Positions 22,766-61,204 of a stretch of DNA of 64,000 nucleotides are shown piece after piece (the stretch's first letter is position 1; each line of letters starts with the position of its first letter). Made by a program: the position numbers and the translations under genes. The notes under the pieces are model-generated. The model saw only the letters and a list, made by a program, of their open reading frames with translations, was not told where the DNA came from and made no database searches. Origin of the DNA: a virus (Duplodnaviria; Heunggongvirae; Uroviricota; Caudoviricetes); IMG/VR virus record IMGVR_UViG_3300020576_002722, positions 1 through 64,000 of that record; one strand, 5' to 3'.

Positions 22766-23770
22766 ATGGCAGGAAAGCAAAGCGTTGCAGGGCAGATCGT
22801 AGAGCAGTATTGCAAGGACTTCCCGAAGATCAACAACGGAAGGCTGGCAAGAAAGATCGCAGAGGAACACCCACAGCTGGGGACCAGTGAGAAGATCCGA
22901 TGGCAGGTAAGGTTCTACCGTCTCCAGGCCGGGAAGACGCACCGCGACACCAGGAAGAAGAACGGTCACGCTCACATGGAGAAGGAGTCCGCTTCGAGCA
23001 ATGTGTACGAGCTTCCTGAGCCACGCATCATTGAGCGGGTCCCGTTCAAGATGCCAAGCTCGATCCGCAAGCTGCTTGTGTTCTCGGACATCCACGTACC
23101 GTACCACGACATGGACGTGGTCAAGCGTGGCATCGAGTTCGGCAAGAGCGAGGGGTGCGATGGGATTCTGCTGAACGGCGACACAATGGATATGTGTGGG
23201 CCATCGTCGCATGATCCGGATCCACGCAGCCTGGACCTTCCGTCCGAGCTGGAGGATGGACGCCAGTTCCTCAGGCACCTGAGGAATAAGTTCCCTAACA
23301 TCCCCATCTACTTCAAGGACGGGAATCACGAGAATAGGCTGGAGCGATATCTGATCAAGCAGGCACCCGTCCTGCTTGGCGTGGATGATTTCGAGCTGCG
23401 CAGCCTGCTCCGCATGGGCGAAGTGGGCATCCAGTGGATCGGCGACAAGCGCCTGTTCCTGGCCGGCAAGCTGGTCATCATACATGGCCACGAGTACAAG
23501 GGCGCGGGTGGTGTCAATCCGGCCAGGTGGCTCTCGCTGCGCACGTCCGGATCGATCATGTGTGGTCACTTCCACCGAAGCTCCTCGCACTTCTCCAAGT
23601 CCATCATGGACGAGATCTCTGGTGCCTGGTCTACCGGATGCATGTGCCACATGAGTCCCGACTACTCACCGTACAACCAGTGGAACCACGGGTTCGCGAT
23701 GGTCCACGTCAACAAGGACAAGACCTTCGAGGTTGAGAACAAGATGATGATCGGTGGCAAGGTACGATGA
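22766..23770 (+). CDS. calcineurin-like metallophosphoesterase
   Basis: The motifs appear in canonical order: FSDIHVPYHD, NGDTMD, GNHENR, IIHGHE, GHFH. Confidence 0.85.
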   Translation: MAGKQSVAGQIVEQYCKDFPKINNGRLARKIAEEHPQLGTSEKIRWQVRFYRLQAGKTHRDTRKKNGHAHMEKESASSNVYELPEPRIIERVPFKMPSSIRKLLVFSDIHVPYHDMDVVKRGIEFGKSEGCDGILLNGDTMDMCGPSSHDPDPRSLDLPSELEDGRQFLRHLRNKFPNIPIYFKDGNHENRLERYLIKQAPVLLGVDDFELRSLLRMGEVGIQWIGDKRLFLAGKLVIIHGHEYKGAGGVNPARWLSLRTSGSIMCGHFHRSSSHFSKSIMDEISGAWSTGCMCHMSPDYSPYNQWNHGFAMVHVNKDKTFEVENKMMIGGKVR

Positions 23771-24294
23771 TCGAGAAGCTGCTGGAGATGGCCGTCGAGT
23801 TCGCCGAGAGGCTGACGCCTGTGTACTTCGTCAAGGAGTACCAGCGAGGGGTCATGTTCCGTGGCGGCAGGTTTAAGGGAGAGATCACGCCAGGCACCCA
23901 CTTCAAGTGGCCGATATTCGATGACATCGAAGTGTTCCTGGTGGCCACTACAACGATGGCTCTTCCAGCGCAGAGCGTCACCACCCGTGACGGCCGCAAT
24001 GTAGTGATCAAGTCCAGGATCAAGTACAGGGTAAGCAACGTCAAGGTGTTCGGTGTCGAGGTGGCCGACGCGCTCGATGCACTCAGCGACATGGTGTGCG
24101 GGATCCAGTTCGACCTGATCCGATCGATGACATGGGAGGAGTCGTGCCTGGCCAACCTGGACGAGGTGATCACAGCCGACGCCAAGAAGGAGGCCAAGAA
24201 GTGGGGCATCACCATCGAGAAGGTGACCGTGACCGACTACTCCGAGATGCGATCGATACGCCTGTTCAACGAGGGCGGCAAGGTGACCGACTAA
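23767..24294 (+). CDS. SPFH/band-7 (prohibitin/HflK-like) domain protein
   Basis: ATGA overlap with the upstream gene. The sequence VKEYQRGVMFRGGRF...PGTHFKWPIFDDIEVF...TRDGRNVVIKSRIKYRV is the typical SPFH core. Confidence 0.8.
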   Translation: MIEKLLEMAVEFAERLTPVYFVKEYQRGVMFRGGRFKGEITPGTHFKWPIFDDIEVFLVATTTMALPAQSVTTRDGRNVVIKSRIKYRVSNVKVFGVEVADALDALSDMVCGIQFDLIRSMTWEESCLANLDEVITADAKKEAKKWGITIEKVTVTDYSEMRSIRLFNEGGKVTD

Positions 24295-24334
24295 CGATTC
24301 GTCACAAAGTACTTGACGTATCAGGAATCTCTCT

Positions 24335-24342
24335 TACATTTG
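24335..24342 (+). promoter_or_regulatory. class I -7 box TACATTTG (context CTTACATTTGGGGC) upstream of the tRNA cluster
   Basis: The same extended motif TTAC(A/C)TTTG(C/G)GG occurs at 45075(-), 50895(-), 51567(+), 52061(+) and 54108(+). This copy lies 37 nt before the first tRNA-like gene. Confidence 0.5.
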
Positions 24343-24378
24343 GGGCGTCATTGTCAATGGGGGTTGGGTTTTGATGGA

Positions 24379-24448
24379 GGCCGTGTAGCTCAGTTGGTAG
24401 AGCAGCCCCGACCGGGGTTGGTCGCAGGTTCGAGTCCTGCCACGGGTT
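24379..24448 (+). tRNA. tRNA-like gene with a defective anticodon arm (pseudo-tRNA or anticodon-less tRNA mimic)
   Basis: Parse: GGCCGTG-TA-GCTC-AGTTGGTA-GAGC-A-GCCCC-GACC-GGGGT-TGGTC-GCAGG-TTCGAGT-CCTGC-CACGGGT-T. The D- and T-arms are canonical. The anticodon arm is 3 nt short (4-nt or at best 6-nt loop), so no 7-nt anticodon loop can be drawn. There is a G2:G71 mismatch. Confidence 0.45.
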
Positions 24449-24570
24449 CAGGGAGTTCTTTTCTTCATGGTAGCAAAGGCGGGGTGATCACCGCCGAACT
24501 GGTAGTCGGAAGGCCGCAAGCCGGAGACGTTGTACCACATACGGCCTGTTATAGGACTTGGGGCCGTGCC

Positions 24571-24642
24571 GGACGGGTAGCTCAGATGGTAGAGCAGCCG
24601 CCTGAAAAGCGGTGGCCGGTCGTTCGAGTCGACCCCTGTCCA
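24571..24642 (+). tRNA. tRNA-Phe: tRNA-Phe (anticodon GAA)
   Basis: Cloverleaf drawn by hand: GGACGGG-TA-GCTC-AGATGGTA-GAGC-A-GCCGC-CTGAAAA-GCGGT-GGCC-GGTCG-TTCGAGT-CGACC-CCTGTCC-A. No encoded CCA. Confidence 0.9.
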
Positions 24643-24757
24643 CTATATGGCGGCGTAGCTAACCGCAAAGCTGGCAGATGTTGGGATGAACGCATATACT
24701 CCCGGCCCACGTTCAGAGATGCCACACAGCGCTGCTTTATTGACTCGGGCGCGAAAT

Positions 24758-24829
24758 TGGACAGTAGCACAGCGGTAGTGCAGCTCCCTGTTAAGGAGCA
24801 GGTCGGTGGTTCGATCCCATCCTGTTCAG
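24758..24829 (+). tRNA. tRNA-Asn: tRNA-Asn (anticodon GTT)
   Basis: TGGACAG-TA-GCAC-AGCGGTA-GTGC-A-GCTCC-CTGTTAA-GGAGC-AGGTC-GGTGG-TTCGATC-CCATC-CTGTTCA-G. Confidence 0.9.
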
Positions 24830-25069
24830 CAAACAAGCGTGTGCCCTGGCAAGGGTTTTGCTCCACGCCCGAAGTCACACACCCTTCAAGTGTGGCCTAT
24901 GTTTATGGGTGACGCGCCGGAGAGACGGCACCATTAGTAGCCAATGGTCCTGACGGGTAAAGCCGTGGGTAAAGCTACCATCCCGTGGGTGGAAACACGT
25001 GCAATGTGAACCGGCACATGACAGTGTATAAAACAACGGTGACTTGGTGCTTCAGAGAAAGTACCGCCT

Positions 25070-25141
25070 GCGCGGATGGTGTAATTGGTAGCATGTCAGC
25101 CTTCCAAGCTGAGGGTGCGGGTTCAAGTCCCGCTCTGCGCT
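25070..25141 (+). tRNA. tRNA-Gly: tRNA-Gly (anticodon TCC)
   Basis: GCGCGGA-TG-GTGT-AATTGGTA-GCAT-G-TCAGC-CTTCCAA-GCTGA-GGGT-GCGGG-TTCAAGT-CCCGC-TCTGCGC-T. The discriminator T at 25141 is followed by C, then the ATG of the next gene at 25143. Confidence 0.9.
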
Positions 25142-25142
25142 C

Positions 25143-25535
25143 ATGGTGCGAATCGTATCCCATACCAGGATCAAGAAGCTCAGTGGCAAGGGCTACTGGA
25201 TATCGAAGATCTGTGTGCTCGATGAGCGCGGAAACACCGTGTTCGATTGCTACGCCCTGGAGGATGCGGCTGAGTGCCCTCCGGTAGGTACATGGGAGCT
25301 TGTCCTGGAGTACTCGCCCAAGTTCGGCAGGAAGCTGTACGAGATGAAGGGGATACCTGGCAGGGCCGAGATCAAGTACCACGTCGGAAACACCTTGGCC
25401 GACACCGACGGGTGCCCGCTACTCGGAGCCAACTACATCGGCAACACTGTCAATGGATCACGCCTAGCGCTTGATCGATTCATGAGGGCCATGCGTGGCG
25501 TCGACTGCACGACGGTCACCATATCGATCCAATAG
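25143..25535 (+). CDS. DUF5675-family protein (possible YkuD-like cell-wall enzyme)
   Basis: 130 aa. The sequence GTWELVLEYSPKFGRKLYEMKGIPGRAEIKYHVGNTLADTDGCPLLG matches my memory of the DUF5675 signature. Its H-x-G-N...D-G-C spacing resembles the H...GC catalytic motif of L,D-transpeptidase folds, which is inference. Confidence 0.7.
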   Translation: MVRIVSHTRIKKLSGKGYWISKICVLDERGNTVFDCYALEDAAECPPVGTWELVLEYSPKFGRKLYEMKGIPGRAEIKYHVGNTLADTDGCPLLGANYIGNTVNGSRLALDRFMRAMRGVDCTTVTISIQ

Positions 25536-25538
25536 TCG

Positions 25539-25548
25539 TACCTTCGCA
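25539..25548 (+). promoter_or_regulatory. class II motif TACCTTCGCA
   Basis: Third copy of the decamer. It lies 3 nt after the DUF5675 stop and 24 nt before the hairpin at 25572. Confidence 0.35.
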
Positions 25549-25571
25549 CTCGTGTTCATGTGTGGTCAAGG

Positions 25572-25604
25572 CTCCAGGTCTGAAAGGATCTGGAGTTCTT
25601 GTTT
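25572..25604 (+). terminator. stem-loop plus T-tract (rho-independent terminator or 5'-UTR hairpin)
   Basis: CTCCAGGTC-TGAAAG-GATCTGGAG (9 bp including one G.T) is followed by TTCTTGTTT. The role is ambiguous because a promoter-like decamer lies just upstream. Confidence 0.5.
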
Positions 25605-31606: not shown

Positions 31607-31990
31607 TCAGCGCCCGGATCGAGGGTAGAAGACCCCTTTCATGTAGTCGTTCACGTCTGTCATGAACTCCTCTAGGGAGCGGCATTCATAGACTATCCAT
31701 CCAGCCTCTGAGAACCTGATCTGCATCTCTTTCTGTGACTCGGATAGCTTGCCTTTGTCAGACTTCATCTCGATGGCCATGCCGCAGACGTGCGTATCTC
31801 CATACGTCCTGGGATGGCACACCAGGATATCAGGGACTCCGGCCAGTACCCCCATGTCCTTCCACAATTTCCCCATGTGTGGACTCCCGGCATCTCTGCC
31901 ATTGGGAGGGTGGAACGCCAGGACGTTAGGGTACTGTAACCGGAGCCACTTGATACACGCCTTCTGGAGCGCTTGTTCTGGACGCTTCAT
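31607..31990 (-). CDS. VRR-NUC (PD-(D/E)xK) nuclease
   Basis: The start MKRPEQALQKACIKWL has an ATGA overlap with the RNA ligase stop. The catalytic motifs are GVPDILV ... GMAIEMKSDKGKLSESQ. Confidence 0.8.
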   Translation of the reverse strand: MKRPEQALQKACIKWLRLQYPNVLAFHPPNGRDAGSPHMGKLWKDMGVLAGVPDILVCHPRTYGDTHVCGMAIEMKSDKGKLSESQKEMQIRFSEAGWIVYECRSLEEFMTDVNDYMKGVFYPRSGR

Positions 31991-33063
31991 TCCTCGTACT
32001 TGAGAAGGAACTGAGGATTGATCGCCTTGAACGATATGCGTCCACGGGTCACCGTCTTGCCGGTGATGAAGGTCTCGGTCATCTCTTCCAGGCTGCGCAC
32101 CACGATCCCCTCGGCCCATACGTCGGGGTTGATGGCGCTCTTGCGGGTGGCGAAACCAACCAGCTCGTCAACACTGAGGGCACCAAGGGTGAGGCAGTCG
32201 ATGTACGGGACCATCTTCAGGTCCATCGATCCGAATGCGACTGCGGCATCGCTAGGCAGGTACGGCTTGCCGGCATCGATGTCGAACACGTTGAAGAAGA
32301 GAACCTTGCGGCCGGTCAGCTTGTACTTGTTGCCCTGGATCCCTTCGCCGATCAGCTCGCCCTGGATGGCGATGTTCTTGCCGTAGTCGCGGAGCTTCTG
32401 CTCGACGTTCATCTCTCGGGCGTACTGCCAGAACGCATTCCTTTCGTCCTCCTTCAGCTCCAGGTTGCGCGAGCAGACCCCGAACTCCCCGTTGTACAGG
32501 TAGAAGGTAGCGCTGCTGCCGTCCATCTTCTCGCGGATCTCCACCTGCGCTGCGGCGTACTTGTCCAGGATGCCTGGCATGTTCTGGATCCGCTCCTCGT
32601 CCGTCTTGTGGATGAAGGATGGGAAGTAGCCGCGCACGGTACCGCCCAGGCAGGCCGGGATGGCGGGCTCGTACTTGATGATGCCGAGCAGCTCTGTCAC
32701 ATCGTACCCTTCTGCTGACAAGCCCAAGGCTGCGAACAGCTCGTGCTCGGCCGTGATAACATCGGCAAGGATCGACACCGGCATCATCAGGCCCTGGGAT
32801 ACCTGTCCCTTGAGTTTGATGGTGCGCACACGCATGTGGCGTGGCTTCATGAACTCGAACTCTGGTCGGTCAGGAAGGATGCTGTCCGGCTCTATGAATA
32901 CGATCGAATCGCCAATTCTGTGTCCGGCATCGTTCCTGATCACGCACTTCCACCCCAATACGCTGGCTACGGACACTTCGTCGGCTCCGGGTATTGGCTG
33001 GATGTCAGAGATCGTCTGTATGCTTGCAAGTTTTCTGCTCATGATTTTGTGTTTGAGAGCCAT
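31987..33063 (-). CDS. ATP-dependent RNA ligase (DRB0094/Rnl5-like)
   Basis: The N-terminal module is RKLASIQTISDIQPIPGADEVSVASVLGWKCVIR. Nucleotidyl-transferase motif I is EKMDGSS (KxDG). Downstream motifs are EGIVVR and ISFKAINPQF. Confidence 0.85.
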   Translation of the reverse strand: MALKHKIMSRKLASIQTISDIQPIPGADEVSVASVLGWKCVIRNDAGHRIGDSIVFIEPDSILPDRPEFEFMKPRHMRVRTIKLKGQVSQGLMMPVSILADVITAEHELFAALGLSAEGYDVTELLGIIKYEPAIPACLGGTVRGYFPSFIHKTDEERIQNMPGILDKYAAAQVEIREKMDGSSATFYLYNGEFGVCSRNLELKEDERNAFWQYAREMNVEQKLRDYGKNIAIQGELIGEGIQGNKYKLTGRKVLFFNVFDIDAGKPYLPSDAAVAFGSMDLKMVPYIDCLTLGALSVDELVGFATRKSAINPDVWAEGIVVRSLEEMTETFITGKTVTRGRISFKAINPQFLLKYEE

Positions 33064-37946: not shown

Positions 37947-38687
37947 CTATCCGTTGTATGATCGACCGACATCTTGCGATGAGTCGTCTGACCTTGTGGG
38001 TATGTATTGGCCTCCGTCCGACTTGATGGACCCCTTCACGGTTCCATTGGTCTTCATGAAGTGCCTGAATCGTTCCCTATCTTCGGGCTTCCAGTCCATC
38101 TCCGGCTTGACCGGCCCCAGGTCATCCTCCATCTTCAGATCCTCCACATACTCCTCCAGTTGCTTGGGTTTCGCTGCAACGAAGGAGAACCAGTCGGGCT
38201 TCTCGTACTTGTTGGAGCCCTTCATGCCGGCGTTGATAGAGCTGGCTGCCATGAGCCACTTGATGTCGTCGTATACCTCGGAGGATGTCTGTATCCTGCG
38301 CACGCCATAGATGATCGTAGCGTGGTCCCTGCTGTACGCTGCGGCGATCGATACATAGGTCAGCCCCATCTTGCGCAGCAGCCACCAGGCCACCATGCGT
38401 GCATTGGCCGCCGTGGCATTGTACCTGAGACCGGATCGCATGATCTCGTCGGTCAGCCCGTGGCACAGTACCTCGCTCATGGCCGACAGTACAGCCTCGT
38501 TCGCCTTGGTAACGAACTCGGGCGAAGACATCGATTGCGACATCTTCTGTGAGGCACGCAGCTGCTTGTCCCGAAGGATGCAACCTGCCACGACTCCATC
38601 GATGTCCTTTGTCCCGAGGGACGCCCTCTGTCTGATGTACTTGGCCAGGTGGCCAGGTACCGTGATCGTCATCATCTCTGCTTCCAT
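37947..38687 (-). CDS. DnaA C-terminal (domain IV) HTH-like protein, putative replication initiator
   Basis: The sequence NARMVAWWLLRKMGLTYVSIAAAYSRDHATIIYGVRRIQ matches the DnaA domain IV pattern (R..A.YL.R..T..S...IG..F.RDH.TV.H....I). The ATG lies 1 nt after the tRNA-Arg discriminator. Confidence 0.65.
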   Translation of the reverse strand: MEAEMMTITVPGHLAKYIRQRASLGTKDIDGVVAGCILRDKQLRASQKMSQSMSSPEFVTKANEAVLSAMSEVLCHGLTDEIMRSGLRYNATAANARMVAWWLLRKMGLTYVSIAAAYSRDHATIIYGVRRIQTSSEVYDDIKWLMAASSINAGMKGSNKYEKPDWFSFVAAKPKQLEEYVEDLKMEDDLGPVKPEMDWKPEDRERFRHFMKTNGTVKGSIKSDGGQYIPTRSDDSSQDVGRSYNG

Positions 38688-38688
38688 G

Positions 38689-38760
38689 AGGCCCCGCCAG
38701 GAGTCGAACCTGGATCTAGCGTTTAGGAAACGCTCGTTCTGTCCATTGAACTATGAGGCC
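38689..38760 (-). tRNA. tRNA-Arg: tRNA-Arg (anticodon CCT)
   Basis: Sense strand: GGCCTCA-TA-GTTC-AATGGACA-GAAC-G-AGCGT-TTCCTAA-ACGCT-AGAT-CCAGG-TTCGACT-CCTGG-CGGGGCC-T. It is followed by C, then ATG (38687). Confidence 0.9.
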
Positions 38761-38764
38761 AAGT

Positions 38765-38841
38765 GGTGTCGGGTGTGAAACAGGATACCTGTCGTCGAAC
38801 CAGGTAAACGCCCCTGCGTTGCCTTCGGGGCACCCGACACC
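38765..38841 (-). ncRNA. structured element (11-bp closing stem, internal hairpin, T-arm-like hairpin) between a stop codon and tRNA-Arg
   Basis: Sense strand: GGTGTCGGGTG-[GCCCC GAAGGCAACGCA GGGGC]-GTTT-[ACCTG GTTCGACGA CAGGT]-ATCCTGTTTCA-CACCCGACACC. It starts 4 nt after the TAG at 38846 and ends 4 nt before tRNA-Arg. Confidence 0.45.
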
Positions 38842-43956: not shown

Positions 43957-43970
43957 GAGGATTGTACCTC
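43957..43970 (-). promoter_or_regulatory. variant hairpin GAGG-UACAAU-CCUC upstream of the ParB-like gene
   Basis: It holds the same position as the UCACAU hairpins (directly 3' of a tRNA-like element), but the loop differs. A (CA)n tract follows before the ATG. Confidence 0.35.
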
Positions 43971-43972
43971 GC

Positions 43973-44012
43973 GGGCCTCCCGGTCTCGAACCGGGAAGAC
44001 TGCCTGTGGCCC
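43973..44012 (-). ncRNA. tRNA-like element T1 (acceptor plus T-arm)
   Basis: Sense strand: GGGCC-ACAGGCAGTCTT-CCCGG-TTCGAGA-CCGGG-A-GGCCC. It starts 6 nt after the TGA at 44019. Confidence 0.5.
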
Positions 44013-44018
44013 CGTTGA

Positions 44019-44288
44019 TCAGCTGAACAGCTCGTTCTTCAGCTCTTTGAGCATGGTCAGCCCCTTCTCCAAGCTGGCCACCTCGTCGAGCGCATCAATG
44101 ATGGCCGCCCCGGACAACGGCACGGCGGACTTCAGCGTGTTCACTTTGCGCTTCGCCGATGTGAGCGCCTTTTGGGTGGCCAGGATATCGCTGTCCAGTT
44201 GCAACGCTTGCTCGGCGTCCGTCTGAGCGAACTGCTCTGCCTCCACCACCGCCTTGTCCTTTGTCAGACTTTCCAGATACTTGCCCAT
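44019..44288 (-). CDS. small coiled-coil protein (89 aa)
   Basis: The start MGKYLESLTKDK is preceded by an A/C-rich leader. The composition is coding-like. Confidence 0.55.
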   Translation of the reverse strand: MGKYLESLTKDKAVVEAEQFAQTDAEQALQLDSDILATQKALTSAKRKVNTLKSAVPLSGAAIIDALDEVASLEKGLTMLKELKNELFS

Positions 44289-44822: not shown

Positions 44823-45068
44823 GGCGGCCGCTCACTTCGCCCTCAGAAGGACATGCGCTTTCCGTACAGGACCAGATCGCCATTGTTGCGGATCAGGTTG
44901 CGCATGATCTCCTTCATGCGACCGGTGGGTGACTTTTTGCCATGCGTGCCAGTCCATTGTTCTACATGCCGCGCCCCGAACAGGTGCTATGACCTGTTCG
45001 CGAGCGAATGGATCCCTGACGGGGCGCGGGCTTATTGTAAGTTACGGCATTCACGAAGTACGGTCATA
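44823..45068 (-). ncRNA. candidate non-coding transcript or structured leader (about 245 nt)
   Basis: No ORF longer than 24 aa on the sense strand. It begins after the class I -7 box at 45075-45082. It contains the nested helices GCGCCCCG...[GAACAGGT-CATAGC-ACCTGTTC]-GGGGCGC (about 44952-45014) and a hairpin GCATGA-AGGAGA-TCATGC, and it ends with the hairpin GGGCG...CGCCC (44823-44843). Confidence 0.35.
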
Positions 45069-45074
45069 GCTCGG

Positions 45075-45082
45075 CAAATGTA
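45075..45082 (-). promoter_or_regulatory. class I -7 box TACATTTG
   Basis: Sense strand: TTCATACATTTGCCGAGCTATG. It lies immediately downstream of the stop at 45097. Confidence 0.45.
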
Positions 45083-45096
45083 TGAACTATTCCGAA

Positions 45097-45432
45097 TCAG
45101 TCGTTGGGGTGTTTGAACGCGTTAGGGTCCTGTCCGGGACGTGTGATCGTATTGGTGCGCAGCACGAAGGCGTACACCGCACAGCCACCCACCGGAGTAA
45201 TGATGCCGTGCGACGTTATGGTGTACCCGTGGTCGAATGCCCACCGATAGATCACATCCAGTGAGTTCTCGTCCTCCGGGGTGAACGGAACCACCTCGCT
45301 GTACTCGAACCGGGCTACCTTGATGCGGACGCGCATCCCACGGCGTTCGGTCGGCTGCATGTACGTGCCGGTGGCCACCAGTGCGTTATTCTGGTGGTTG
45401 GCCCCTCGTTGTGTCATCCTGTTCTTTCTCAT
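45097..45432 (-). CDS. hypothetical protein (111 aa)
   Basis: The start MRKNRMTQRG lies 8 nt downstream of hairpin H1. The longer track ORF runs through the RNA elements. Confidence 0.55.
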   Translation of the reverse strand: MRKNRMTQRGANHQNNALVATGTYMQPTERRGMRVRIKVARFEYSEVVPFTPEDENSLDVIYRWAFDHGYTITSHGIITPVGGCAVYAFVLRTNTITRPGQDPNAFKHPND

Positions 45433-45440
45433 TGTCGTTG

Positions 45441-45458
45441 ATGGCGATGTGACGCCAT
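45441..45458 (-). promoter_or_regulatory. conserved-loop hairpin H1 (sense AUGGCG-UCACAU-CGCCAU)
   Basis: 6-bp stem and 6-nt loop. It is one of 8 copies with an identical loop and unrelated but complementary stems. Confidence 0.7.
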
Positions 45459-45460
45459 GT

Positions 45461-45500
45461 GCGCGTCCCGGAATCGAACCGGGACGTGAACCGTTCGCGC
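45461..45500 (-). ncRNA. tRNA-like element T2
   Basis: Sense strand: GCGCG-AACGGTTCAC-GTCCCGG-TTCGATT-CCGGGAC-GCGC, then AC. It is preceded by tandem stops TAG-TAA. Confidence 0.65.
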
Positions 45501-45503
45501 TTA

Positions 45504-45752
45504 CTATTCTTCGCCCTGAGCGATGACAGGGAGTCCGTGGAACGCTATGTCGTTCCGGTATGTTTCGAGCGCCTCTGCTATCGACCTGCATTCAGCGACG
45601 ACCCCCTCGGGGGTGTGCATGATAACGCGTCGGAAGCCCCTGGTGATGGCGATGCCTCGTAGCTGGCAGGCCAGCGACAGGGTGTCCCATTTGGTCCGGC
45701 GCGGGTCCTGCTGGGACTGGTGCCGGGTCATCGAGTGGTGCGCTGTGTACAT
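45504..45752 (-). CDS. hypothetical protein (82 aa)
   Basis: The ATG overlaps the upstream stop (TGATG). Confidence 0.5.
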   Translation of the reverse strand: MYTAHHSMTRHQSQQDPRRTKWDTLSLACQLRGIAITRGFRRVIMHTPEGVVAECRSIAEALETYRNDIAFHGLPVIAQGEE

Positions 45753-45961
45753 CACTTTTCCTCGTTGTAGTGTGACTGTGCCCGTCGCAGCGCATCAGCG
45801 AAGTCCGTCTGAGCCTCATTGGTATCGCAGTAGTGCATCAGGTCGGCCAAGATGTCGCAAACCGTGTTGGCGTTGTCGTCGGCACCAAGTTCGGCCACAT
45901 ACGCATCGACCAGCTTGGCACCCATTGCCGCCCGGTCCTTGTTCGTTCTTTCGATGTCCAT
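45752..45961 (-). CDS. hypothetical acidic protein (69 aa)
   Basis: The start MDIERTNKDR follows the A/C-rich leader TCAAACCAATACCCAAAACAAC. Confidence 0.55.
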   Translation of the reverse strand: MDIERTNKDRAAMGAKLVDAYVAELGADDNANTVCDILADLMHYCDTNEAQTDFADALRRAQSHYNEEK

Positions 45962-45983
45962 GTTGTTTTGGGTATTGGTTTGA

Positions 45984-46027
45984 GCCTGCGGGCGGAATCG
46001 AACCGCCCTGAGTACTCCATTGCAGGC
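45984..46027 (-). ncRNA. tRNA-like element T3
   Basis: Sense strand: GCCTGC-AATGGAGTACTCA-GGGCGG-TTCGATT-CCGCCC-GCAGGC, then TC. It starts 8 nt after the TAG at 46036. Confidence 0.65.
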
Positions 46028-46035
46028 TGCCGGGT

Positions 46036-46461
46036 CTACGACCACTCGGTGATCAGCGCCACTTTGTCGGCGTTCAGTCCCCACGTATTCGCCCGGTCGC
46101 GGAGCCTCGACTGGACCCCTTCTACCGTGCGCGACTGTTCGTATTCCTCGCCGGGTCCATCGTGCGCCGTTTGCATGTCCACGAAGAAATTCTGCGGCAA
46201 CACCGGCAGATAGTCCTTCGCAGCTTCATACACATCATCGTTGCGTATGAATGATGTGCCGCCGGAGTTCAACATCGAATCCAGCTTGACGGCCACATTA
46301 TCCGGCAACATGCAGCCGACGGCGCAGCTTGTTCCGCCCGGTCCACGATAGGCGCACCCTGTTGCTGGTGCCATTGCCCGACGCCTCTGCTTGGCCATGT
46401 GTTCGACGATGAAGTCGAACGTTTGCTGCATGTCCATCTTCTTGATATCCTCCGTGTTCAT
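46036..46461 (-). CDS. hypothetical protein (141 aa)
   Basis: Clean ORF. The ATG lies 11 nt after hairpin H2. Confidence 0.65.
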   Translation of the reverse strand: MNTEDIKKMDMQQTFDFIVEHMAKQRRRAMAPATGCAYRGPGGTSCAVGCMLPDNVAVKLDSMLNSGGTSFIRNDDVYEAAKDYLPVLPQNFFVDMQTAHDGPGEEYEQSRTVEGVQSRLRDRANTWGLNADKVALITEWS

Positions 46462-46472
46462 TGTTCATGTGC

Positions 46473-46488
46473 GGGCAATGTGATGCCC
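46473..46488 (-). promoter_or_regulatory. conserved-loop hairpin H2 (GGGCA-UCACAU-UGCCC)
   Basis: See H1. The spacer to the ATG is GCACAUGAACA. Confidence 0.7.
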
Positions 46489-46491
46489 TGT

Positions 46492-46530
46492 GCTGCCCCC
46501 GGAATCGAACCGGGGGAGAACCATTGCAGC
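46492..46530 (-). ncRNA. tRNA-like element T4
   Basis: Sense strand: GCTGC-AATGGTTCTC-CCCCGG-TTCGATT-CCGGGG-GCAGC, then AC. It starts immediately after the TAA at 46531. Confidence 0.65.
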
Positions 46531-47022
46531 TTACAGGTCGAGTGCGTCGATGCGCCCCACCATCTTGCGGGCCTTGGCGATGTCGCCCACCGTGGCCGTG
46601 CAGTGTACCAGATGCTCGGTGAGCACCTCGATCATGTCGCGGGCCTCGCGCAGCACACCGGACACCGTCTCGAAGTCCACGGGGACATCTTCGGACTCTT
46701 CCATCCATGCCGTCTCCACATACTGCTGCTGGCCGTACGTGATCACGCCCAAGCTCACCAAGAGCTTCAGCGCGTCGTGGATGTTGTTGAAGCCCCTGAT
46801 GGCCTGCACTCGTCCATCCACGCTGCCGTACACGGTCCAGAACACGCTGTTTGCTGGCGCATCCTCTGGAGGCTCGACGCCGTTGAGCGGTTGCGTATCG
46901 GTGCCGTCATCCATGCACAGGGAAAGCTCGTACGAGTTGAATGTACCGACATTGGAGGTGTCCTTCGTGAACAGCCACCGGTCGGGGCGCTTCTCGTCGT
47001 GCATCCGTTCTACTTTGGTCAT
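46531..47022 (-). CDS. hypothetical protein (163 aa)
   Basis: The start MTKVERMHDE lies 11 nt after hairpin H3. Confidence 0.65.
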   Translation of the reverse strand: MTKVERMHDEKRPDRWLFTKDTSNVGTFNSYELSLCMDDGTDTQPLNGVEPPEDAPANSVFWTVYGSVDGRVQAIRGFNNIHDALKLLVSLGVITYGQQQYVETAWMEESEDVPVDFETVSGVLREARDMIEVLTEHLVHCTATVGDIAKARKMVGRIDALDL

Positions 47023-47033
47023 TGGTTCATGGT

Positions 47034-47051
47034 AGCGCAATGTGATGCGCT
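47034..47051 (-). promoter_or_regulatory. conserved-loop hairpin H3 (AGCGCA-UCACAU-UGCGCU)
   Basis: Identical in sequence to H8. The spacer to the ATG is ACCAUGAACCA. Confidence 0.7.
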
Positions 47052-47121
47052 GGTGGAGCCGGGGGAATCGAACCGCCCGCGAATGCGCTCTACTTGCTGC
47101 GCAAGGGTACCATAGCTCCAC
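47051..47121 (-). ncRNA. tRNA-like element T5 (69 nt, D-arm-less, encoded A-CCA end)
   Basis: Sense strand: GGAGCTA-TGGTACCCT-TGCGC-AGCAAGTAGA-GCGCA-TTCGCG-GGCGG-TTCGATT-CCCCC-GGCTCC-A-CCA. It has an extra hairpin with a 10-nt loop in place of an anticodon arm, and one C:C mismatch in the T-stem. Confidence 0.55.
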
Positions 47122-47128
47122 GCCTTCT

Positions 47129-47884
47129 TCACGATAGCCTGTTGGCGCTCGATGTTGCACCGGACACCGGCCTATTGAAATTCACATTGTCTCCAGCAGA
47201 ACGACCGGAGTTGTAGGCATCCCTGCTTCCTGCGTGTCTGCGGCTTGTCGTGGTCCGCAGCTTCACCCCAAGGTCGCCCAGATACTTCTTGTACTTCTGG
47301 ACGGTCACATTGCTCTTCACGACCATAATGGCCGTGCATGAGTTGCCCTCTGCCGCCTTTCGCTCTGCCACCATGCGACGTAGTCGTTCGGCGATACGTG
47401 ATCCCATGCCGAGCATGAACGAGGCACGCAGAGTACGACCGTGCATACTGGTACCGCCATCTCGTTTGAGGCGCTTCAATTCAGCCTGCTTCAGCTTCCA
47501 CGCCTGCTCCATAGCTCCCTGTATCATGTCGCACAGGTAGAAGGCCATCTCGGTGTCTTTGGCGGTTCCGAAGTATAGCATTTCGCCGTTGTACCACTTC
47601 GTCACCTTGGTATCGGTGAACTCGGAAATGGCAACGGAGCACGAGTTTACCACCTCAGGCCACCTGTTCATATTCACGCCCGTGGCGTACGGACGCTTTC
47701 GGGCACCGTACTGGTCACCCATGATGGACGCCTCGTCCATAGTGATGTTGTATTCGCGGATAAGGGAGTCCAACTTCTGTGCTGCCGCGATGGCCTCTGC
47801 CTCAGTGCAACCGTTGCTAACGGTACGCGCCTGAAGCTCCCGGATGATGCGGGCTATCCGCTCCCGATTAACGTTCTGTTCCAT
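47129..47884 (-). CDS. DUF2786-like protein (251 aa)
   Basis: The N-terminus ERIARIIRELQARTVSNGCTEAEAIAAAQKLDSLIREYNI resembles the DUF2786 helix pair common in phage and plasmid proteins, recalled from memory. Confidence 0.65.
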   Translation of the reverse strand: MEQNVNRERIARIIRELQARTVSNGCTEAEAIAAAQKLDSLIREYNITMDEASIMGDQYGARKRPYATGVNMNRWPEVVNSCSVAISEFTDTKVTKWYNGEMLYFGTAKDTEMAFYLCDMIQGAMEQAWKLKQAELKRLKRDGGTSMHGRTLRASFMLGMGSRIAERLRRMVAERKAAEGNSCTAIMVVKSNVTVQKYKKYLGDLGVKLRTTTSRRHAGSRDAYNSGRSAGDNVNFNRPVSGATSSANRLS

Positions 47885-47895
47885 TGTTCATGTGT

Positions 47896-47913
47896 ATACC
47901 CATGTGAGGGTAT
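47896..47913 (-). promoter_or_regulatory. conserved-loop hairpin H4 (AUACCC-UCACAU-GGGUAU)
   Basis: The spacer to the ATG is ACACAUGAACA. Confidence 0.7.
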
Positions 47914-47915
47914 TG

Positions 47916-47972
47916 GAACGGTGGATGGTGTCGATCCATCAGCACGCGTGCTCACCGGCCGGGGCACCGTTC
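47916..47972 (-). ncRNA. tRNA-like element T6 (divergent)
   Basis: Sense strand: GAACGGTG-CCCCGGCCGGTG-AGCACGCGTGCT-GATGG-ATCGACA-CCATC-CACCGTTC. It has an 8-bp closing stem, and the T-loop departs from the TTCGA consensus. Confidence 0.45.
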
Positions 47973-47977
47973 AGGTA

Positions 47978-48370
47978 TTACATTAGGCCCAGACCACGCA
48001 GGGCGCTCATATCCTTGTCGAAGCTCGCCGGCCACTTCACCGTGGACAGGTCGCGCACGAACGTCGACGCCTCCGCGTCAAGGAACAGGCACCCACCGAT
48101 GGACACCTTGAATGGGTTCGGTTGCAGCCCGTTCCACGCTGCGAACGCCAGAGGGTCACTCATGGCGCTCGGAGCCTTCTTCAGTAGCCGCATGTGCTTC
48201 TGTGGCCCGACCTTGTAGAAGGCCCTCTGGATGGCGTCCAGATGCGTCTGCGGGATGTCGCACCCGTGCTGCGCCTTGTGGATGTCCTTGGCCACGTTCT
48301 GGGCCAGTTGCAGTGCGGTCATACGTTGGACCTTGTCGGCGTGCTCTGCGTACGCCTTCGCTGTGCTCAT
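47978..48370 (-). CDS. hypothetical protein (130 aa)
   Basis: Clean ORF with the A/C-rich leader AAACCAATACAACCACAGAACA. Confidence 0.65.
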   Translation of the reverse strand: MSTAKAYAEHADKVQRMTALQLAQNVAKDIHKAQHGCDIPQTHLDAIQRAFYKVGPQKHMRLLKKAPSAMSDPLAFAAWNGLQPNPFKVSIGGCLFLDAEASTFVRDLSTVKWPASFDKDMSALRGLGLM

Positions 48371-48394
48371 TGTTCTGTGGTTGTATTGGTTTGT

Positions 48395-48434
48395 GCCCGC
48401 CGTGGAATCGAACCACGGCGTGAACCGTTCGGGC
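48395..48434 (-). ncRNA. tRNA-like element T7
   Basis: Sense strand: GCCCG-AACGGTTCAC-GCCGTGG-TTCGATT-CCACGGC-GGGC, then AC. Its first G is the G of the upstream TAG stop. The linker is identical to T2 while both stems differ by compensatory changes. Confidence 0.65.
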
Positions 48435-48538
48435 TACTGGTCGGCCAGTGTCTGGTCGTCGGGCCGCTGTTGCGACCGCTTCTGTTCAGCCTTGCGGCGT
48501 TCGTGCTCTTCGCGGAGCACCTGTGTGTAGTGCGTCAT
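48434..48538 (-). CDS. possible micro-ORF (34 aa)
   Basis: The sequence MTHYTQVLREEHERRKAEQKRSQQRPDDQTLADQ starts 2 nt after the upstream stop. The rest of track ORF 48434..48697 overlaps the previous gene. Confidence 0.3.
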   Translation of the reverse strand: MTHYTQVLREEHERRKAEQKRSQQRPDDQTLADQ

Positions 48539-48540
48539 AG

Positions 48541-48765
48541 TCAGTTCAGGGTGAGTCGTGGTACTACAACGAAGGCCCCCAGTTCCCGGTGGAACACGTA
48601 GCGTGCCCCGATAGTGGAGCACAGGCATACACGGCCCTCGGCCATCAGTACCCGTGCATAGGTGGGCACCTTGTCGATGGGGTCGAGTCGTAGGCACCCG
48701 TCTATCAGGTGCCCGTCAAGGTCGTGGGCCAGCGCTGCGGCCCGCTCTTGGTCCTTGGTATTCAT
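48541..48765 (-). CDS. hypothetical protein (74 aa)
   Basis: The ATG lies 10 nt after hairpin H5. Confidence 0.55.
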   Translation of the reverse strand: MNTKDQERAAALAHDLDGHLIDGCLRLDPIDKVPTYARVLMAEGRVCLCSTIGARYVFHRELGAFVVVPRLTLN

Positions 48766-48775
48766 TCGTCAGTGG

Positions 48776-48793
48776 ACGGCAATGTGATGCCGT
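48776..48793 (-). promoter_or_regulatory. conserved-loop hairpin H5 (ACGGCA-UCACAU-UGCCGU)
   Basis: The spacer to the ATG is CCACUGACGA. Confidence 0.7.
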
Positions 48794-48796
48794 TGT

Positions 48797-48838
48797 GCGC
48801 GGGCAGGGAGTCGAACCCCGCCCTCGGACCATCCGCGC
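48797..48838 (-). ncRNA. tRNA-like element T8
   Basis: Sense strand: GCGC-GGATGGTCCGA-GGGCGGGG-TTCGACT-CCCTGCCC-GCGC, then AC. It starts 2 nt after the TAA at 48841. Confidence 0.6.
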
Positions 48839-48840
48839 TG

Positions 48841-49122
48841 TTACTTCCACACTTCCGCCACCACCTCAGGTGGCGCATCCTCGGTCGCCCTGCACATTTC
48901 CCAACCAGTGGTGCTCAGGATGGCTTGGCCGTACTTCTCGTCGCACTTGACACTGACCACTTGCCCTTGGTGTACCGGGTTGGACCCATAGGCCGACGGA
49001 TACGCCTCAAAAGCCTCGCCATCGCGAGCTATCAGGATGGCGTGCCTCAGGCCGAACGAATTGGTGTTGGTGGACAAGATGGCCACCTTGAACTCCTTAC
49101 GGAGCATGGATGTCTGGTTCAT
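48841..49122 (-). CDS. hypothetical protein (93 aa)
   Basis: The start MNQTSMLRKEF is at the ATGA overlap with the small zinc-ribbon ORF. Confidence 0.55.
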   Translation of the reverse strand: MNQTSMLRKEFKVAILSTNTNSFGLRHAILIARDGEAFEAYPSAYGSNPVHQGQVVSVKCDEKYGQAILSTTGWEMCRATEDAPPEVVAEVWK

Positions 49123-49268
49123 CGCTTTGCTGGTGTTGGTTTCTTCTCGGTGTAGAACATCATCCCGCACTGGTAGCAGCGGAAATGGATGATGGTGCCC
49201 ATGAGTCCCATAGGCGCGTTGGTCGTGCTGCACATGGGGCAGCTACGGCGTACTCGTTGCCATGCCAT
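49119..49268 (-). CDS. small zinc-ribbon protein (49 aa, below the track cutoff)
   Basis: Hand translation: MAWQRVRRSCPMCSTTNAPMGLMGTIIHFRCYQCGMMFYTEKKPTPAKR (CPMC...CYQC). The ATG lies 10 nt after hairpin H6. Confidence 0.45.
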   Translation of the reverse strand: MAWQRVRRSCPMCSTTNAPMGLMGTIIHFRCYQCGMMFYTEKKPTPAKR

Positions 49269-49278
49269 TGTCTGTTGG

Positions 49279-49294
49279 TCGCAATGTGATGCGA
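49279..49294 (-). promoter_or_regulatory. conserved-loop hairpin H6 (UCGCA-UCACAU-UGCGA)
   Basis: The spacer to the ATG is CCAACAGACA. Confidence 0.7.
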
Positions 49295-49297
49295 TGA

Positions 49298-49342
49298 TCG
49301 CTGTCTGGACTCGAACCAGATGTCCCGCCTATCGGGCAGCGA
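49298..49342 (-). ncRNA. tRNA-like element T9 (acceptor, D-arm-like hairpin and T-arm)
   Basis: Sense strand: TCGCTG-[CCCG ATAGG CGGG]-ACA-TCTGG-TTCGAGT-CCAGA-CAGCGA, then TC. Confidence 0.55.
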
Positions 49343-49376
49343 AGGGTGCGCTACGTCCTTGGTGGCGCGGTATTGG

Positions 49377-49763
49377 TCAGCCTTGGTTCACCGGCTGAAG
49401 GTGTGCGTTCAGTGTGCGGCCATCGGGCATCAGGAAGAATTGCGGGTTGAACTCGCCCCACTTCTCAGCTTGCGGGCCAACGAGGTAGCCCTTGCCGCCC
49501 CGGTTCCAGTACACGGCGATGGCCTCTTGTCCGAGGGTTTCAGACAACCGGTGGACAAGTGTCTCTTCAACGGCATTCCACCCGGCAGCGCCAACCTCCA
49601 CTACCATCGTCGGTTCGGTGTTGCTGTTTATCGGGCCGTGAAAGGTGAGCGGAGCGTGGATGCCTGTGTCGGTCGGATACGTCCTTCGCACCGCATCCAT
49701 TACCTGTTCTACGGTATTGGTTCCGCCGTCCGGCCTGTTGAGGCCGATGTTGAGTGTGAACAT
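49377..49763 (-). CDS. hypothetical protein (128 aa)
   Basis: The start MFTLNIGLNRP is chosen 9 nt after hairpin H7, by analogy with the other units. An in-frame ATG inside the hairpin (49790) is possible. Confidence 0.6.
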   Translation of the reverse strand: MFTLNIGLNRPDGGTNTVEQVMDAVRRTYPTDTGIHAPLTFHGPINSNTEPTMVVEVGAAGWNAVEETLVHRLSETLGQEAIAVYWNRGGKGYLVGPQAEKWGEFNPQFFLMPDGRTLNAHLQPVNQG

Positions 49764-49772
49764 TGCTTGGGG

Positions 49773-49790
49773 ATGTCCATGTGAGGACAT
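49773..49790 (-). promoter_or_regulatory. conserved-loop hairpin H7 (AUGUCC-UCACAU-GGACAU)
   Basis: The spacer to the ATG is CCCCAAGCA. Confidence 0.7.
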
Positions 49791-49792
49791 TG

Positions 49793-49860
49793 TGGACCGT
49801 ACGGGAGTCGAACCCGCCGTCAAACCCCACCCGGGGCGGCCCTGTATTGCTCCACGGCTC
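49793..49860 (-). ncRNA. tRNA-like element T10 (about 68 nt, non-canonical core)
   Basis: Sense strand: GAGCCGT...CCCCGGGTGGGG...-GCGGG-TTCGACT-CCCGT-ACGGTCC-A-C. The acceptor has 7 bp with one mismatch. The D and anticodon regions cannot be drawn canonically. Confidence 0.45.
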
Positions 49861-49877
49861 AGTACGTCTTTTGAGGG

Positions 49878-50114
49878 TCAAGCTGCGTCGGGCCCTGAAG
49901 GCATTTCTACCACTTCCTCGTCCCATGTTTCTACCTCGGCCTCGGTGTCTTGGGTGAACTTACCCACGTCTGCAAGGTATTCCGCGCCTGCGGCAAGATT
50001 CTCCTTCAGTTCTTGGATGGATGCCCCGTTCATGGTGTATTCCACCTCGATAGTCAGTCTCAGTTTAGCGGTCTTCATGTTCGTGCTATGCTTAGCGCTT
50101 GTCTTGATATCCAT
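49878..50114 (-). CDS. hypothetical acidic protein (78 aa)
   Basis: The first gene of the small-gene block. The ATG lies 9 nt after hairpin H8. Confidence 0.6.
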   Translation of the reverse strand: MDIKTSAKHSTNMKTAKLRLTIEVEYTMNGASIQELKENLAAGAEYLADVGKFTQDTEAEVETWDEEVVEMPSGPDAA

Positions 50115-60749: not shown

Positions 60750-61204
60750 AGTTTCCAGAGATTCTTCTCAAAGGTATCAGGAATCCTGAAGTCGATGATC
60801 TCTCGGACCACGTTCCAGTTGAGGCCACCCAGGTGGCATCCGATCAATGGGAAGTTGATCGCAAGTGTTCCGTCGATCGCAGCCAAGACGGCTACCTGTT
60901 GCATACACGCATCCATCGCATCGTAACTCGCATACTTCCTCCCGTCCTTTCCGTAGAACTCCTGCGTGAAGCAGTTCATGACGATCGTGTTGTCGCTGCC
61001 GAACAGATGTACCTCTTGAACGTCACCAAGCAAGTGGCCTCCAGGTCTCTTGGACGCAACATGCTTCAAGTACTCAGTGAACACTTTGGGCCACTTGTTC
61101 CGGATGGCGAGCGCCACACCAGATCCCATCACGCCTTGGGTATTAACCCCGTGCAGGATGATGCCTTTCGCGGTGAGAAGGTCACCCTTGATCTCGTTGA
61201 TCAT
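60746..61204 (-). CDS. macrodomain protein (ADP-ribose-binding/hydrolase, Poa1p-like)
   Basis: The sequence is MINEIKGDLLTAKGIILHGVNTQGVMGSGVALAIRNKWP...NFPLIGCHLGGLNW. ATGA overlaps at both ends. Confidence 0.8.
   Translation of the reverse strand: MINEIKGDLLTAKGIILHGVNTQGVMGSGVALAIRNKWPKVFTEYLKHVASKRPGGHLLGDVQEVHLFGSDNTIVMNCFTQEFYGKDGRKYASYDAMDACMQQVAVLAAIDGTLAINFPLIGCHLGGLNWNVVREIIDFRIPDTFEKNLWKL

Follow-up and report, generated by a model that had tools for sequence, protein, structure and literature searches.

A candidate non-decoding, tRNA-shaped RNA at the head of a tRNA operon in an uncultured phage

Transfer RNA (tRNA) genes of phages are currently explained by codon supply or by the replacement of host tRNAs destroyed by defence nucleases. 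Outside phages, tRNA folds that do not decode serve as signals for RNA maturation: plant mitochondrial 't-elements', mitochondrial tRNA punctuation, and MALAT1 mascRNA/MEN-beta recruit RNase P and RNase Z, and the vtRNAs (TMERs) of murine gammaherpesvirus 68, tRNA-like and not aminoacylated, are handles for the processing of RNAs linked to them. Among phages, T7 has early-region RNase III sites, at which polycistronic transcripts are cut at structured intergenic RNA by a host RNase, and T4 has RNAs C and D, small stable non-tRNA RNAs that are co-encoded and co-processed with the phage tRNAs. Here, an element of 70 nucleotides (nt) at positions 24379-24448 (plus strand) of a 64,000-nt stretch of viral DNA (positions 1 to 64,000 of IMG/VR record IMGVR_UViG_3300020576_002722, Caudoviricetes; hereafter the window) is analysed, which has the body of a tRNA and no anticodon loop. 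The reading that we favour, from sequence comparison, is that of a functional, non-decoding tRNA-shaped RNA rather than a decaying pseudogene; in function the element would, by analogy, most resemble the organellar processing signals, MALAT1 mascRNA and the herpesvirus vtRNAs, none of which is homologous to it.

The element reads GGCCGTG-TA-GCTC-AGTTGGTA-GAGC-A-GCCCC-GACC-GGGGT-TGGTC-GCAGG-TTCGAGT-CCTGC-CACGGGT-T, and is built as follows.

24379-24385, plus strand: 5' strand of the acceptor stem, GGCCGTG, pairing with 24441-24447; 6 of 7 pairs form
24386-24404, plus strand: U8, A9, D-arm GCTC-AGTTGGTA-GAGC and A26; canonical, with A14, G15, G18, G19 and A21 present
24405-24418, plus strand: substitute for the anticodon arm, a stem of 5 base pairs (bp), GCCCC/GGGGT, with the 4-nt loop GACC (24410-24413)
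24419-24440, plus strand: variable loop TGGTC and T-arm GCAGG-TTCGAGT-CCTGC, with canonical T54-T55-C56-A58
24441-24448, plus strand: 3' strand of the acceptor stem, CACGGGT, and discriminator U73, then CA

The acceptor stem has a G.U pair at 1:72, a G.G mismatch at 2:71 (24380 with 24446) and C3:G70; CCA is not encoded, as in the neighbouring tRNAs, and U73 followed by C74 is common to the two alleles described below and to tRNA-Gly and tRNA-Arg of the window. The Rfam tRNA model (RF00005, gathering threshold 29 bits) matches 24379-24448 at 45.8 bits (E 1.4e-6), and gives 58-67 bits for the four ordinary tRNAs of the window (Phe-GAA, Asn-GTT, Gly-TCC and Arg-CCT); in its alignment acceptor, D-arm, variable loop and T-arm are canonical, and 4 nt stand in place of the 7-nt anticodon loop. 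ARAGORN reports 24379-24449 as 'tRNA-???' with a 2-nt anticodon 'ac', a register that corresponds to an alternative 6-nt loop with the last C:G pair opened, and in no register can a 7-nt loop be drawn with the stem intact. The element thus passes the RF00005 threshold but fails the feature that defines the family, a 7-nt anticodon loop with U33 and a 3-nt anticodon, and is for that reason not a decoding tRNA; since it has no anticodon loop, it is, as judged from its sequence, a tRNA-shaped RNA unable to read codons. An earlier note on this DNA had already described, by hand count, one G:G mismatch in the acceptor, normal D- and T-arms and a loop of 4 nt, or of 6 nt in an alternative pairing, and had suggested scoring with ARAGORN; the two programs agree with that fold, and the count was correct.

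Evidence on what selection has kept comes from a second allele, on the metagenome contig L006, whose Band_7 gene is identical to that of the window (0 of 528 nt differ) and which is ~35-40% diverged from the promoter spacer onward, a pattern that looks like a cassette swap. L006 carries a homologous element at the same place (RF00005 score 56 bits). In a structure-guided comparison, the D-arm, variable loop, T-arm, positions 8, 9 and 26, and U73 show 0 differences in 42 positions, versus 14 in 24 for the acceptor and anticodon stems (Fisher p = 2.5e-8), and the stem differences all keep pairing, five pairs having changed in both partners and two in a single partner. The G.G mismatch of the window (2:71) is a U:A pair in L006, whose acceptor stem (ATCTTCG/CGAGGAT) forms 7 of 7 pairs and whose anticodon stem (GTCGG/CCGAT) shows three double compensatory changes; RNAalifold, applied to both alleles, independently recovers the cloverleaf with five compensatory pairs. 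The 'anticodon loop' of L006, at 19 nt, is also non-canonical, and no antisense target for it occurs in the window at up to 3 mismatches. With an unchanged core, stems that keep their pairing and two non-canonical loops, selection thus appears to have maintained the tRNA body and both helices, and not the anticodon loop.

The same Band_7, Metallophos and DUF5675 proteins were retrieved from many metagenome contigs by exact-protein look-ups, and the identical 70-nt element is present in 15 independent contigs from different samples, which excludes an assembly artefact; the 15 copies are also identical across 90 nt of upstream flank, so that their identity says little on selection. Two of the 15 have another cluster downstream, with a second odd element and then Trp, Phe, Met and Gly. 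The element is absent from contigs L047-L049 (Band_7 78% identical) and L050-L052 (67% identical); in L047 the TTACATTTG of the promoter joins directly to the AGTTCTTTC trailer, and the cluster of L050 consists of Met, Asn and Gly. Relatives therefore hold at this slot the same allele, the 19-nt-loop allele or nothing, and none of those compared has there the intact tRNA that the earlier note had expected if the element were a decayed copy. As to the conservation of the 3-nt gap, also raised there, no relative has a normal loop; the loop of L006 is 19 nt and distant relatives lack the element, those found through Band_7 and DUF5675 having either no adjoining tRNA cluster or no element and yielding no further alleles.

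In IMG/VR, neither the Band_7 protein, nor the exact element, nor a pattern of T-arm plus trailer found a match, and a scaffold pattern with an anticodon arm of free length returned only 26 ordinary tRNAs (25 tRNA-Asn and 1 tRNA-Lys), all with 17-nt arms; likewise, no shortened-arm copy of the D/T scaffold was found in 185,579 representative bacterial and archaeal genomes or in IMG/VR, neither of two patterns run against the genomes giving a hit. A scan of metagenome DNA with a pattern of the element gave no match in a collection that evidently lacks the contigs in question, the pattern matching 18 loci already retrieved. The closest genuine tRNA among the relatives is tRNA-Asn(GTT) of L050, 76% identical and with the same D-arm, T-arm and U73, and a descent of the element from an Asn/Lys-type phage tRNA is the origin that we tentatively include in the best explanation.

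A second odd tRNA-like RNA of 103-128 nt, absent from the window and called by neither ARAGORN nor Rfam, lies in relatives between the slot of the element and tRNA-Trp. Its parts are a 7-bp acceptor, a D-like helix, a T-arm and U73-C; in place of the anticodon arm stands a hairpin whose length varies and whose closing stem is GGCC/GGCC, or GGTC/GACC in one compensatory variant.

L006:2681-2784, L007:1861-1964, L010:2568-2671 and L047:1335-1463: second odd tRNA-like RNA

Within the window, 11 copies of the T-loop motif GGTTCRANTCC stand against 0.26 expected, and 8 of them belong to minus-strand, intergenic tRNA-like folds between 45.4 and 49.9 kilobases (kb). These eight modules are co-oriented with the small genes of that region, most of them 0-10 nt past a stop codon, and the sister modules as a whole fold as tRNA-like junctions graded from a near-complete cloverleaf to a minihelix.

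49793-49860, minus strand: sister of near full size, with acceptor, T-arm and hairpin GCCCC-GGGT-GGGGT
49297-49342, minus strand: sister without a D-arm, with acceptor TCGCTG/CAGCGA, hairpin CCCG-ATAGG-CGGG, T-arm and U73-CA
48838-48796, 48434-48394, 47121-47052, 46530-46491, 46028-45982 and 45500-45460, minus strand: six further intergenic modules
38765-38841 (near 38.8 kb), minus strand: degenerate module, a three-way-junction tRNA-like fold, 4 nt upstream of tRNA-Arg(CCT), read by eye
~43960-44030 and ~47900-47990 (near 44.0 and 47.95 kb): further degenerate modules

The hairpin of the largest sister has the same stem as the element and the same 4-nt loop length, and in contigs L055 and L061 the allele of the sister without a D-arm differs at 6 positions, all of them in three double compensatory pairs (3/3). 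Each of the six further modules (45460-48838) follows a stop codon by 0-10 nt, and most consist of an acceptor of 4-7 bp, a T-stem of 6-7 bp and a bulge of ~10 nt that resembles a D-loop and contains GG, which amounts to a 12-bp acceptor/T minihelix with a surrogate of the D-loop; one sister module has an 8-bp acceptor and a hairpin with a 3-nt loop, and the fold at 38765-38841 is closed by a stem of 11 bp and includes a CCCC...GGGG hairpin besides a degenerate T-arm. Acceptor helix, T-arm and a GG partner of D-loop type are common to the element and its sisters. The ten other anticodon-less mimics claimed for this genome in the earlier note are thus real, at least ten folds having been found, and the genome carries at least 11 tRNA look-alikes, the element included, that probably act by shape and not in translation.

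Most of the minus-strand modules are followed by a conserved short hairpin, GGGCA-TCACAT-TGCCC (with variants of loop ATCACATT), ~10-25 nt ahead of the next start codon; its role may be that of promoter, operator or processing signal.

46488-46473, 47047-47034, 48786-48773 and 45457-45444, minus strand: examples of the short hairpin

The early-gene arm in which they lie (45000-50000) is strongly mosaic in comparison with contigs L055-L064, genes between modules being swapped or missing in near-identical contigs; a gene for a DUF7168 protein of 251 amino acids, for example, is replaced by one for 121 amino acids, or is absent, among them. The tRNA-like modules may coincide with recombination boundaries.

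The surroundings of the element are those of a tRNA operon with a predicted promoter of its own.

23767-24294, plus strand: Band_7/SPFH gene, upstream of the promoter
24313-24340, plus strand: sigma-70-like promoter TTGACG-16-TACATT, 19 nt past the Band_7 stop codon
24341-24378, plus strand: leader of ~38 nt, with the G-rich motif GGGGGTTGGGTT at 24359-24370
24449-24473, plus strand: conserved trailer CAGGGAGTTCTTTTCTTCATGG, with a mosaic junction at 24473/24474
24571-24643, plus strand: tRNA-Phe(GAA), canonical
24758-24830, plus strand: tRNA-Asn(GTT), canonical
25070-25142, plus strand: tRNA-Gly(TCC), canonical, abutting the ATG of the DUF5675 gene at 25143
38688-38760, minus strand: tRNA-Arg(CCT), canonical

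The promoter is the only such site found in a scan of the window, and its two hexamers are kept in the L006 allele, with 7 substitutions in the spacer; the promoter-proximal position ascribed to the element in the earlier note is therefore confirmed at the level of prediction. The element lies on the sense strand, co-oriented with the flanking genes; the scan found no terminator-like site between Band_7 and the element, and the first one downstream of the tRNA cluster is at 25570-25597, past the DUF5675 gene. The G-rich motif of the leader is invariant between the two alleles while the surrounding leader is ~35% diverged, and it occurs as a single copy in the window, hence is not a repeated signal. 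G24377 and A24378 can pair with C74 and U73, lengthening the acceptor helix, and RNAalifold predicts these pairs (-2:74 and -1:73) in both alleles; a helix between leader and trailer, suggested by a single-sequence fold, was rejected, the differences of L006 at 24359, 24466 and 24467 not being compensatory. The cluster variants of L006, L007 and L010 depart from the window sequence, or return to it, at 24473/24474.

At two of the ordinary tRNAs, U73-C stands directly before an ATG, that of the DUF5675 protein at tRNA-Gly (25141-25145, plus strand) and that of a DnaA-HTH-like protein at tRNA-Arg (38685-38689, minus strand), and neither junction leaves room for a Shine-Dalgarno sequence outside the tRNA, which suggests that excision of the tRNA would create leaderless or near-leaderless messenger RNAs (mRNAs); in L050 the arrangement is the same, with the ATG 2 nt past tRNA-Gly. 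Since both tRNAs abut an ATG and the only terminator-like site after the cluster follows DUF5675, excision of the tRNAs must define the ends of the mRNAs. Successive tRNAs are separated by unusually long spacers of 110-240 nt (24449-24570 and 24831-25069), which hold structured modules that are kept in diverged relatives (L047:1720-1815 and 2070-2145; L050:1016-1087; L070:172-323), among them a hairpin GGCGG...CCGCC, with a compensated variant GGTGG...CCACC, that is followed by CTGGTAGTCGGAAGGCCGCAAGCCGGAGACGTTGTACCACA, and a long hairpin upstream of tRNA-Gly in L047, L050 and L070.

As to function, a possible reading, and the one that we put forward tentatively, is that the element is an exapted tRNA body, recognised by host tRNA-processing enzymes, and works as a transcript-processing module. 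Transcription would start from the promoter at 24313-24340, probably with additional read-through from the Band_7 gene, and the element would come first in a unit that also comprises tRNA-Phe, tRNA-Asn, tRNA-Gly and the DUF5675 gene. The parts presumably kept by selection are the acceptor helix, the D-arm, the variable loop and the T-arm, hence the elbow of D- and T-loops, while a stable stem would stand in for the anticodon arm and its loop (4 nt vs 19 nt) would be dispensable. The acceptor, T-arm and elbow are the part of a tRNA that RNase P, RNase Z and the CCA-adding enzyme recognise, the anticodon not being needed. The body could accordingly serve as a recognition handle, for RNase P at its 5' end and for the CCA-adding enzyme and a 3' endo- or exonuclease at its 3' end; as a site of cleavage or 'punctuation', the element would separate the Band_7 message from the precursor of the tRNAs and DUF5675. 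The same job may be proposed for the at least ten reduced modules of acceptor, T-arm and elbow that follow stop codons, and for tRNA-Gly and tRNA-Arg where they abut start codons.

The earlier note had left the choice between a decaying pseudogene and a functional mimic undecided. The L006 allele, the lack of an intact tRNA in the slot and the sister modules favour the mimic, a relic being unlikely; the simple form of the pseudogene proposal does not agree with the 0 of 42 core changes and the 14 stem differences that all keep pairing (in one allele pair), nor with the lack of an intact orthologue. Of the marks of a decaying pseudogene, the loss of decoding capacity is present, whereas relaxed constraint is not seen in the single allele pair and no intact orthologue was found. 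Several points nevertheless weigh against a processing module under selection. Only two alleles are available, that of L006 from a single contig, so that the covariation amounts to one comparison; the sequence of the D- and T-arms is a widespread consensus scaffold of tRNA-Asn/Lys, and its identity between the alleles could therefore partly reflect shared ancestry. The element is dispensable, since relatives with Band_7 proteins at 78% and 67% identity do without it. With a promoter 38 nt upstream and a true tRNA 190 nt downstream, a processing site at this position is redundant. The full D-arm and full-length stem, which the reduced sisters have shed, hint at a need beyond recognition by RNase P, and canonical cleavage by that enzyme would be impeded by the pairs predicted at -1:73 and -2:74. 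We infer both the expression and the cleavage of the element from its sequence.

Some of these points leave room for a trans-acting decoy or sponge, a stable, abundant, uncharged tRNA-shaped RNA that is not consumed in translation and would titrate a host protein that binds the tRNA body, for example a tRNA-cleaving or tRNA-modifying defence effector. Such a role, which we consider rather unlikely though worth weighing, agrees with the complete L-shape of the element, in which D-arm, variable loop and a normal stem of 5-7 bp are kept that the intergenic sisters have shed, with its own predicted promoter within a tRNA operon, and with the differences between the alleles in acceptor stem, anticodon stem and loop, as expected of specificity determinants in an arms race. 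Circumstantially, the lineage carries NAMPT-family genes, an RNA ligase and, in relatives, an Acb2/Tad1-like gene. Against it, the anticodon loop, absent here, is what the best-known tRNA-targeting effectors recognise, and close relatives lack the element. Phage tRNAs that counter tRNA-targeting defences provide a precedent (PMC10264068, PMC11464382 and PMC11555353), but an anticodon-less phage decoy has none in the literature searched. The proposal of a processing signal suits the genome-wide pattern somewhat better than that of a decoy. A non-functional relic, a former tRNA gene short of 3 nt in its anticodon loop that decay or deletion has yet to remove, is unlikely too. It would explain the missing anticodon, the G.G mismatch of the acceptor and the dispensability in relatives; only two alleles exist, the 15 copies, identical together with 90 nt of upstream flank, give no signal of purifying selection within the lineage, and cassettes are gained and lost in the tRNA cluster, which is a shuffled mosaic. 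It does not, however, account for L006, also without a normal loop and yet with a flawless core and fully compensated stems: two independent inactivations, both confined to the loop, would be needed, an unlikely course. Nor does it account for a paralogue with the same design of C4/G4 tetraloop hairpin, for sisters under structural constraint, or for the lack of a comparable deletion variant of the scaffold in IMG/VR and the 185,579 representative genomes.

That the elements act at the level of DNA, as homology linkers or cassette boundaries for the shuffling of genes and tRNAs and with no function as RNA, appears improbable, even though the mosaic junction at 24473/24474 adjoins the element, gene content between the minus-strand elements varies among relatives, and the L006 allele resembles a cassette swap that starts in the promoter spacer. 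The compensatory changes preserve RNA helices, which homology between DNAs does not require, and all the elements lie on the coding strand of their neighbours; a DNA-level role and an RNA role are not mutually exclusive. An unusual decoding tRNA, with a 6-nt loop reading a doublet for -1 frameshifting or an 8-nt loop suppressing frameshifts, has the 2-nt anticodon call of ARAGORN in its favour and is otherwise scarcely credible: the 6-nt register needs a C:G pair to be opened and leaves a loop, CGACCG, without U33 and without a purine at 37, and the loop of L006 is 19 nt, so that the alleles have no common anticodon. U73 with C3:G70 would, by the established identity rules, give no obvious anticodon-independent identity for aminoacylation. 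Two further candidates were discarded: the tRNA-like domain of transfer-messenger RNA (tmRNA), as the element has C3:G70 and no G3:U70, no tag reading frame is present and ARAGORN finds no tmRNA, and YrlA or another bacterial Y RNA, as RF02553 has no hit in the window at E <=10 and the topology of the element is normal, not permuted.

Set beside the described systems, the element is like phage tRNAs and the annotated 'pseudo-tRNAs' in its cloverleaf body, its position in a tRNA cluster and the lack of an encoded CCA, and it shares its scaffold with tRNA-Asn and tRNA-Lys genes and passes the RF00005 threshold; it differs from them in having no 7-nt loop and in a constraint that bears on the body and not on the loop, a pattern expected, as far as the sequences tell, of neither a working nor a decaying tRNA. 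The likeness to t-elements, mitochondrial punctuation and mascRNA lies in the many such folds at gene boundaries and in the tRNAs that abut start codons here. Those systems are organellar or nuclear and not homologous to the element, whose cleavage is a prediction, and the element differs from t-elements and mascRNA in having its own promoter and in standing at the head of a tRNA operon, not at the end of an mRNA. The Rfam model mascRNA-menRNA (RF01684) has no hit in the window at E <=10, and it matches the sister allele in L055 weakly and below threshold (22.4 bits vs 42.5), which speaks for analogy and not for homology. The vtRNAs of murine gammaherpesvirus 68 belong to a eukaryotic Pol III/RNase Z system that releases microRNAs, whereas no linked small RNA was found for the element; virus-encoded tRNA-like RNAs are the topic of a review (PMC12680231). 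The closest phage analogue of the proposed punctuation would be the RNase III sites of T7, which are simple hairpins cut by RNase III and not tRNA-shaped. The tRNA-like domain of tmRNA and YrlA are non-decoding mimics that keep acceptor, T-arm and elbow, as the element does, YrlA having, unlike the element, a permuted topology; RNAs C and D of T4 have no sequence relationship to the element and are not simple cloverleaves without an anticodon loop.

A conserved phage 'tRNA' that is unable to decode would mean that selection can act on the tRNA body as a product in its own right; in annotation such genes pass silently as 'tRNA-???' or pseudo-tRNA, or are missed. If the modules are processing handles, they would be the counterpart in a bacterial virus of mitochondrial tRNA punctuation, and would offer a simple and testable model for the exaptation of tRNA genes as RNA-processing signals; if the element is a decoy, it would represent a new class of RNA anti-defence factor. 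The literature searched presents phage tRNAs as anti-defence tools, but contains no anticodon-less phage tRNA mimic and no tRNA-like punctuation in phage; it is possible that in this lineage the tRNA shape has turned into a general-purpose RNA module, used for a mitochondrion-like tRNA punctuation of transcripts by host RNase P and 3' enzymes, as anticodon-less decoys against tRNA-directed immunity, or both.

The genome itself appears to be that of an uncultured phage without a close sequenced or annotated relative: among ~50,000 isolated phage genomes, there was no nucleotide match to 24000-25600 (megablast) and no match to the neighbouring protein of 370 amino acids (tblastn), and the helicase and the RNA ligase had distant matches only (tblastn). 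The window has ~58% G+C and encodes very large proteins without family matches, together with endonuclease VII, a DnaB-type helicase and a DUF6371 protein. The RNA ligase (31987-33063, minus strand) has an N-terminal OB domain (PF21189 and PF09414), two open reading frames of the NAPRTase/NAMPT family lie at 61201-61986 and 62622-63581 (minus strand), and in some relatives a gene for a protein with an Acb2/Tad1 hairpin is inserted downstream of the tRNA cluster (L012:5329-5550 and L017:3707-3928); judged by their families, the NAMPT-family genes, the RNA ligase and the Acb2/Tad1-like gene are cargo of a counter-defence type in this lineage.

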